Shown: positions 1 to 462 of the stretch, one piece after another
How the letters are laid out: each line of letters starts with the position of its first letter
Numbering within the stretch: position 1 is the first letter of the stretch
Origin: a virus
Lineage: Duplodnaviria; Heunggongvirae; Uroviricota; Caudoviricetes
Strand: one strand, 5' to 3'
Virus record (IMG/VR): IMGVR_UViG_2778261085_000011
Location: 1 to 13,532 of that record
Length of the DNA: 13,532 nt
Translations under genes and position numbers: made by a program
The notes under the pieces: model-generated
The model's input: the letters and a program-made list of their open reading frames with translations, nothing else
What the model was told of the DNA's origin: nothing
Database searches by the model: none

Positions 1-462
1 TCATGTTTGCGAAGCCATCGAGCGATAAAAATCAGAAGTAATTTTTTTGTCGATCAGGTTCCTGCACGGTTCACCTTCCTGCACGCCTTCGCGCGCTAAT
101 ATCCATGGCTTTTCCTGGTGGGTTAACTGTTCCAGTTCGTACGCCGAAAAACCGCCAAAAACTTTATAGATTTCGTCAAGGTGGTTTACCACCCCGTTCG
201 GTAGTTCTGGGCGTTTGATCTCTTCGTCAATGGCTCGCCATTTGTAGTCTGAAAAACGGTTGTACAGTTCACGCACAACCGGACCATGTACCCATGCTTC
301 AAATTGATTCGGTATCAGTTCCCGATCATTGTTTAAAGCCATGTACCAGGCATCGGCATAAAAAACCAGTTTTTGCAGTTTGAGCGGTGTTATTTGATCA
401 CCGTGCTCATGAGCGAAAAACAGTAAGTAATCTGCAATGTTGTTTGCGGTTGATATGGCCAT
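1..462 (-). CDS. Panacea-domain (DUF4065, SocA/PanA-like) protein; putative antitoxin / phage-associated protein
   Basis: Minus-strand ORF ending in TGA at 1-3. Start assigned to ATG at 462 (MAISTANNIADYLL...), preceded by AGGAGG with 4-nt spacer, rather than the upstream ATG at 513. Motifs LKLQKLVFYADAWYMAL...EAWVHGPVV...FGGFSAYELEQLTHQEKPW fit the DUF4065/Panacea fold as recalled. Confidence 0.7.
   Translation of the reverse strand: MAISTANNIADYLLFFAHEHGDQITPLKLQKLVFYADAWYMALNNDRELIPNQFEAWVHGPVVRELYNRFSDYKWRAIDEEIKRPELPNGVVNHLDEIYKVFGGFSAYELEQLTHQEKPWILAREGVQEGEPCRNLIDKKITSDFYRSMASQT

Follow-up and report, generated by a model that had tools for sequence, protein, structure and literature searches.

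The DNA analysed here, hereafter the window, is a stretch of 13,532 nucleotides from a tailed-phage-type virus record (IMG/VR IMGVR_UViG_2778261085_000011, positions 1 to 13,532). Its left edge carries panA, a gene for a Panacea (DUF4065) protein, and the first bases of a second gene, panT, which overlaps it and continues beyond position 1. panA reads on the minus strand from an ATG at 462-460 to a TGA stop at 3-1, and no further domain is present in its product, which is therefore a stand-alone Panacea protein. The features of this end of the window are as follows.

1..4, minus strand: ATGA overlap (TCAT as the window is written), in which the panA TGA (3-1) shares bases with the panT ATG (4-2).
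1..462, minus strand: panA, a complete open reading frame (ORF) for a 153-amino-acid stand-alone Panacea (DUF4065) protein of pI 5.2, a putative antitoxin.
467..472, minus strand: Shine-Dalgarno sequence AGGAGG, 4 nt 5' of the panA ATG, called from the sequence.
487..492, minus strand: perfect TATAAT −10 hexamer of a candidate panAT promoter, predicted from the sequence, with a weak −35 (TTTGTA, 16-nt spacing).
492..515, no strand assigned: 10-nt direct repeat AAACCGACAC in 2.4 copies, detected by Tandem Repeats Finder and overlapping the −35 region.

The remainder of panT, about 435 nt of a gene encoding 145 amino acids, lies beyond the left window edge. It was recovered from Escherichia coli contig NNXD01000001.1 (GCA_002486915.1; locus L010), which is 100% identical to the window across all 10,462 overlapping bases and carries panT as a co-oriented 145-amino-acid ORF at L010:10459-10896, with a 4-nt overlap with the panA stop. 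A complete E. coli genome in RefSeq (L001), 93% identical, has the same 4-nt-overlapping gene annotated as a hypothetical protein. PanT is basic (pI 9.6) and PanA acidic (pI 5.2), a charge complementarity that is typical of toxin-antitoxin pairs. The first-pass annotation, made from the window alone, had placed a Panacea gene at 1-462, described 463-1659 as holding weak ORFs only, reported that no partner was visible, and expected one beyond position 1 on the minus strand unless the Panacea protein stood alone. The gene is a complete ORF at exactly those coordinates and its domain call was borne out by profile search; L001 has no coding sequence between its Panacea and PerC genes, and in 10 near-identical contigs gene callers give ORFs of 48-52 amino acids at most in the equivalent of 463-1659. 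The partner is indeed invisible apart from its start codon in bases 1-4, and the sequence to the left of the window carries the co-oriented ORF that had been expected there. The partnerless alternative is refuted, because both L010 and L001 show an overlapping, co-oriented panT.

PanA matches the Pfam family SocA_Panacea (PF13274) with E 1.6e-18 and 68.1 bits (gathering score 25.7) over positions 1-112 of the 113-position profile, and phrog_1281 at 1e-37. Its match to the NCBIfam equivalog SocA_antitoxin (NF047745) is partial, its 67.4 bits lying below the cut-off of 190, so PanA is a Panacea protein but not SocA. This bears on a type VI reading of the locus, in which PanA would be a proteolytic adaptor that passes the toxin to ClpXP. 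SocA, the founding Panacea protein, acts in this way, and the partial match is in favour of the idea, but the score falls far short of the equivalog cut-off, PanT is unrelated to SocB, which belongs to a different toxin cluster (T10; PMC8832971), and neither ClpXP nor Lon was needed for neutralisation by the PanA proteins tested (PMC8832971). We regard a SocAB-like mechanism as extremely improbable. Upstream of panA, a promoter consensus scanner found no two-hexamer site directly 5' of the gene. The AAACCGACAC repeat is a possible panAT operator judging by its position, and it is kept in close relatives only; an operator conserved across the family was considered and rejected, the upstream regions of divergent alleles being unalignable. 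The closest phage homologue of PanA, at 43% identity, is found in Cylindrospermopsis virus RM-2018a (L018:1495-2460), where an annotated CRISPR array follows it in place of a PanT-like gene and where it is flanked by two DNA methyltransferase genes.

The two genes are inherited together. A PanA homologue lies directly 5' of the PanT homologue, on the same strand, at 84 of 85 loci compared, which is every assessable one (84/84), the 85th being truncated where its contig stops. Enterobacterales, Pseudomonadales, Alphaproteobacteria, Cyanobacteria, Thermodesulfobacteriota, Acidobacteriota, and other groups are represented among these loci, and examples include one in Stutzerimonas that adjoins a type I restriction-modification system, one in Roseibium that adjoins IS1595, and one on a metagenomic contig. 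The conserved co-oriented two-gene arrangement expected of a PanAT (Panacea antitoxin-toxin) system in the sense of Kurata et al. 2022 is thus found across unrelated genomes. No third gene is conserved among 149 neighbours of the pair, and the genes closest to it, taken over about 80 loci, represent 198 different Pfam families.

PanT belongs to a large and widespread family, with 121 clusters in a 90% database, 1,363 representative clusters at E ≤1e-3 among 1.84 billion representatives, and about 360 loci in species-representative genomes, many of them cyanobacterial; a tblastn search of 50,697 phage genomes with PanT gave no match. Across 307 homologues a set of residues is nearly invariant, namely R120 (304), H139 (301), D136 (301), Q110 (298), H83 (296), R60 (296), and H122 (287), and Y142 is likewise near-invariant in the family. 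Such a pattern indicates that, across phyla, particular residues are under strong purifying selection.

The fold of PanT was approached through an AlphaFold2 model built from a 51-sequence alignment led by a homologue, P0002, that is 99% identical to PanT. The model has a predicted local distance difference test (pLDDT) score of 84.8 and a predicted template modelling (pTM) score of 0.75. In it, residues 1-29 are disordered and basic, being rich in lysine and arginine, and the core has a beta-alpha-alpha-beta-beta-beta topology, which in the model is the RelE/HigB/YoeB/YafQ (BECR) fold. By order of secondary structure, H83, R120, H122, D136, H139, and Y142 are placed in the alpha2-beta2 loop, in beta3, and in the C-terminal tail. 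The catalytic residues of YoeB, YafQ, and HigB lie in the same regions, and the conserved residues of PanT would accordingly occupy the catalytic regions of RelE-type toxins if the model is right. Direct hhalign comparisons of PanT with YoeB and HigB sequences were not significant, and a Foldseek search of a viral structure library with the PanT model gave no match. A RelE-like fold could also belong to a ParE-like gyrase poison or to another protein of this fold that does not cleave nucleic acid. That PanT has no Pfam ParE match speaks against this, as does the near-invariant His/Arg/Asp/Tyr set, which fits acid-base RNA cleavage of the kind seen in YafQ, HigB, and PB-BECR1, and we consider a non-nucleolytic PanT quite improbable.

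Among the 1,268 PanAT pairs in 88 toxin clusters predicted by Kurata et al. 2022 (PMC8832971), cluster T1 is the one to which the pair relates. T1 has the antitoxin gene before the toxin gene, an antitoxin without an N-terminal domain, and a distribution over many phyla, and its tested members carry the label "mRNase" in SI Table S1 (PMC8832971). The link runs through the T1 member Emek gp16 of a Salmonella phage (YP_006560566.1), which aligns with PanT in hhalign at 95.4% probability and E 1.8e-8, matches phrog_8366 as PanT does, and gives direct phmmer matches to the PanT family, with jackhmmer converging on the PanT of the window. Because of these connections, PanT is placed by sequence in the same homologous group as T1. 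The accessions of the PanT of the window are absent from Dataset S1 of that study (PMC8832971); Nostoc carneum NIES-2107 and cyanobacterium CCP2 are present in it, with listed intergenic gaps that differ from those of the homologous loci compared here.

A second, weaker relationship connects PanT to an effector protein of an anti-phage system. The C-terminal part of NsnC is the only recurrent PADLOC match of the PanT family. This part is the PB-BECR1 domain, which is described as an RNase domain of BECR type carrying an H-R-H triad and serves as effector in the three-gene Menshen anti-phage system (PMC12065111). The PADLOC match to the PanT of the window is weak and confined to a C-terminal part of NsnC (E 0.032), while 34 of 51 PanT relatives match at E ≤0.1 (best 3.3e-4) and Emek gp16 at E 4.3e-6. 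PanT thus shows weak homology to this effector domain, and the sequence relation is one of a single domain, not of the Menshen system; no recurrent family resembling NsnA (ParB-DUF262) or NsnB (an ABC ATPase) was found among the 149 neighbours scanned. PanT also matches almost the full NCBIfam MAG6450 profile (NF046006) at 28 bits and E 2.5e-6, below the 40-bit cut-off, and all 51 aligned relatives match it at E ≤0.01. By these scores PanT is homologous to the MAG6450 family without being a member by the NCBI criterion. A literature search on MAG6450 returned only a table entry, "conserved hypothetical protein".

The reading that we favour, and that we hold to be reasonably probable, is that panAT is a type II toxin-antitoxin module in which PanA is a putative antitoxin and PanT a putative RelE-like RNase toxin. 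In such a module panA would be the first and panT the second gene of a bicistronic operon, and the ATGA overlap would couple translation of panT to that of panA. PanA would bind PanT directly and neutralise it, in the manner of other stand-alone Panacea antitoxins, perhaps making contact through the disordered PanT N-terminus. In the work of Ernits et al., stand-alone Panacea antitoxins neutralised their toxins by direct binding, and one of them contacted a disordered toxin N-terminus (PMC10440598). Free PanT would act as an endoribonuclease, probably ribosome-dependent, that shuts down translation, with cleavage depending on the near-invariant H83, R120 (H122), and H139-Y142. As to the role of the module, we can offer only speculation: it may stabilise the satellite island that carries it (described below) by killing cells that lose it, or it may instead provide abortive infection of competing phages once some trigger displaces or destroys PanA. 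The first-pass annotation had called the locus a candidate accessory defence or addiction module, and this label is fair as that of a candidate, because the toxin-type RelE/BECR fold, the strict co-inheritance with Panacea, and the status of the pair as variable satellite cargo all agree with it.

A number of results weigh against the toxin-antitoxin reading. PanT matches no Pfam profile at E up to 10, and hence no known toxin profile; neither sequence nor profile searches of PDB found a relative of it; and no PADLOC model matches PanA. The fold assignment depends on the predicted model of P0002, and Foldseek with that model, while placing mostly RelE-type families first, gave no match at E 1e-3, the best being E 0.06. 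The loci compared show no evident enrichment of defence genes beside panAT across taxa, among the 149 neighbours. A defence-island association was considered and rejected, the sole recurrent neighbour family being a Zn-dehydrogenase that related Nostoc loci have in common. A literature search found no toxicity, neutralisation, or defence described for the PanA-PanT pair of the window. Within T1 itself, Emek gp16 and the E. coli MOD1 protein (WP_077635758.1) were non-toxic in E. coli, and the member from Clostridium cadaveris was toxic there without being neutralised by its own PanA, so that the rows checked in PMC8832971 (two non-toxic, one toxic but not neutralised) hold no validated, neutralisable T1 pair. 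The toxicity of the C. cadaveris member as such counts in favour of the toxin-antitoxin reading.

In the main rival explanation, panAT is a trigger-dependent effector pair: PanT would be inert or weak alone, and the Panacea protein would have a mainly sensory or regulatory part, licensing the RNase on a phage or satellite cue. A simple assay of toxicity and neutralisation would in that case miss a functional pair. The two non-toxic T1 partners (PMC8832971) fit this explanation, as do the proposal of Ernits et al. that sensing is the primary task of the Panacea domain (PMC10440598), the use of a related domain as the Menshen effector under the regulation of other subunits (PMC12065111), and the recurrence of the pair as terminal cargo of satellites and prophage-like elements. 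Emek gp16, however, the one non-toxic T1 member whose sequence was compared, lacks H83, R120, H122, and H139, the H/R/H residues that PanT has, so its inertness may not transfer to PanT; judged from the alignment, the missing residues weaken the non-toxicity objection for the PanT of the window. The bicistronic overlap, the pairing of an acidic with a basic protein, and the strict conservation of two genes are moreover the classical type II signature, and a literature search found no defence phenotype for any PanAT pair. We judge the trigger-dependent explanation possible but unlikely, and the ParE-like, SocAB-like, and remnant readings (the last is taken up below) less likely than it. A more specific proposal is that panAT is an abortive-infection module borne by the satellite, in which PanA would sense a phage product, from either a competitor or a helper, and release a Menshen-related, RelE-like RNase. 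This we consider unlikely as well.

Whatever its function, the pair is a separable unit at the end of the island that carries it.

1..623, no strand assigned: in-window part of the panAT cassette, which in full is about 1.07 kb and runs from about −449 to 623 (window coordinates).

In a sister island (L100) at the same chromosomal site the segment from about −449 to 623 is absent, and homology resumes at 624; what is missing is panT, panA, and some 160 nt 5' of the pair. The GC content of the cassette is 44%, that of the island 49%, and that of the host flank 52.5%. Of the 282 complete genomes that match window positions 1-1700, 281 cover less than 80% of this segment and a single one covers 80% or more; among the matches listed, 19 others begin only at query positions 565-629, past panA. 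The panAT pair is thus a discrete mobile cassette that is present or absent as an insertion or deletion inside the attachment (att) repeat of the island. Among 5,426 complete E. coli genomes, one has the allele of the window and 27 have a homologous pair. Two of these 27 were examined. Their alleles are divergent (68-76% nucleotide identity) and occupy the same terminal slot behind a PerC gene, one on another E. coli satellite and one on a prophage-like element.

Several further observations concern the cassette. A PerC gene lies just upstream of panAT in the three alleles and elements examined, either immediately or one small ORF away. The cassette junctions carry GCTGGTGG and GCTGCTGG (at about −460 and at window positions 568-575 and 615-624). 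GCTGGTGG is the Chi octamer and is found at the left junction, at the empty site of L100, and once inside the cassette; GCTGCTGG is a near-Chi sequence at the right junction. Their placement may reflect an 8-nt microhomology through which the cassette was inserted or deleted, or it may be chance.

The rarity of the cassette raises the question of whether panA and panT are a decaying remnant, hitch-hiking junk at the island end. The low frequency of the allele and of the family in complete E. coli genomes would suit such a reading, as would one near-identical E. coli contig (L011:10620-11170) in which a transposase fragment of the IS256 family ("mutator") interrupts panT and leaves panA intact. 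Of the 10 contigs examined, 9 nevertheless have both ORFs intact, with sequences that are the same or almost the same, the exact PanA and PanT proteins are present on hundreds of contigs, and the conserved residues bear the marks of strong purifying selection already described, all of which makes the remnant reading very improbable. Partner calls of 89 amino acids in three contigs were also considered as toxin decay, and this was rejected because the DNA matches the 145-amino-acid allele exactly; the short calls are gene-calling artefacts.

The window covers nearly the whole of the island, which in L001 occupies the E. coli site between tRNA-Pro/yejM and yejO. Its other annotated features are listed here.

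1660..2031, minus strand: PerC-family regulator (Pfam PerC, 8.2e-23), the first real gene on the upstream side of the cassette.
4565-4852, minus strand: second PerC-family regulator (E 8e-33).
6807..8213, minus strand: AAA_25 replication protein of primase/helicase type (Pfam AAA_25, 1.2e-43).
9391-9478, minus strand: C4 antisense RNA (Rfam, 76 bits, well above threshold).
9500-9576, minus strand: isrK Hfq-binding RNA (Rfam, 80 bits, well above threshold).
12291..13532, minus strand: tyrosine integrase (Pfam Phage_integrase, Phage_int_M, Arm-DNA-bind_3), at the end opposite panAT and adjoining tRNA-Pro in L001.

Further island genes are SSB and ProQ/FinO in the window and an Ash/Icd-like gene in L010 and L001, and no structural genes (capsid, tail, lysis) were found in the island gene set. 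In L001 a 16-nt direct repeat, AACGTGTAGCTAAAAA, with copies 14.85 kb apart, brackets the island, and panT ends about 90 nt inside this repeat. By its gene content and its size, within the range of about 10-20 kb, the island is a phage satellite of the PICI (phage-inducible chromosomal island) type, and the published gene set of E. coli PICIs matches that of the island (PMC11773190). In the library searched, no paper connected PICIs to DUF4065/Panacea. The segment 9391-9576, with its two RNAs, is a P1/P4-type immunity RNA region.

Other observations on the island stand apart from the pair. Between panA and the PerC gene lies a non-coding stretch of 1.2 kb that is about 88-93% conserved in 282 E. 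coli genomes and contains G7 and C7 runs and, at 1495-1548, a perfect (CCAG)x13.5 microsatellite; variation in the number of its repeats is suggested because the L001 alignment breaks exactly there. On the minus strand, 9148-11565 is an 805-amino-acid open frame, which one gene caller extended to more than 549 amino acids. Only the C-terminal part is real, the Ash/Icd-like gene (178 amino acids in sister contigs), and the remainder, antisense to an ORF at 10685-10987 on the plus strand whose L001 counterpart is annotated YlcI/YnfO, contains repeated "TKPGSA-TLTGLLT" segments; a stop-free antisense frame of this length is unusual. The region 2519-4059 has an internal duplication, with two paralogous ORFs of about 95 amino acids (3763-4059 and the C-terminal part of 2519-3109) flanking a remnant at 2877-3179 that by eye resembles a fragment of a terminase small subunit (Nu1). 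Sister islands have an intact 200-amino-acid Nu1/Rpp-like gene at the equivalent position, and the packaging-redirection module of this island therefore appears degraded. Just 3' of the AAA_25 gene, 13-nt tandem repeats CTCCCCACTTTTG and TACTCCCCACTTT at 6615-6639 and 6781-6807 may be the origin iterons of the satellite.

Panacea antitoxins are known to pair with dozens of unrelated toxins, and T1 is a very large predicted class of partners in which Kurata et al. 2022 validated no pair. The T1-type pair described here occurs naturally in E. coli, has all of the conserved candidate catalytic residues intact, and sits on a mobilisable satellite for which natural cassette-free sister islands can serve as controls; for these reasons it is a convenient test system. 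The questions that it makes approachable are whether PanT is an RNase, whether the Panacea protein neutralises it directly, and whether the satellite uses the pair for defence or for its own maintenance, and the RelE-like fold together with the link to the NsnC effector domain supplies concrete residues for mutation. If the abortive-infection proposal were true, it would give T1 Panacea partners their first function and trigger, and PICI-encoded immunity would for the first time include a Panacea system.

Compared with the RelE/HigB/YoeB/YafQ mRNA interferases, PanT shares the predicted beta-alpha-alpha-beta-beta-beta topology, small size and basic character, conserved His/Arg/Tyr residues near the C-terminus, and a toxin gene 3' of the antitoxin gene with predicted translational coupling. 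It differs in having no sequence-profile match to RelE, ParE, HigB, YoeB, or YafQ, in its length, which is greater by about 50 residues, with long loops and a disordered extension at the N-terminus, and in being paired with a globular Panacea domain rather than with RelB, HigA, YefM, or DinJ. The Menshen PB-BECR1 domain resembles PanT in its BECR fold, with YafQ-type relatives, and in its H-R-H-type conserved set, whereas PanT is free-standing and paired with Panacea, and the NsnC domain is fused to an inactive PIN domain and works with NsnA and NsnB.

At the level of the island, the closest known systems are the PICIs EcCICFT073, EcCIEDL933, and EcCIMP1 (PMC11773190), which have in common with it an integrase, Ash/Icd-like and primase/helicase genes, PerC regulators, and no structural genes; the island, at about 14.9 kb between its att repeats, also carries its accessory genes at the end opposite the integrase, as they do. 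At the level of the pair, the counterpart is T1. In both, a stand-alone Panacea antitoxin gene comes first and is followed, with a small overlap or gap, by the gene for a hypothetical protein of about 140-160 amino acids; both are spread across many phyla, including cyanobacteria, Enterobacterales, Mollicutes, and phages; and a T1 member, Emek gp16, is detectably homologous to PanT. What sets the pair apart is the H83/R120/H122/D136/H139 motif of its subfamily, which Emek gp16 is without, and its position on a PICI-type satellite. With these distinctions, the locus is a further member of the catalogued T1-type kind of PanAT pair.
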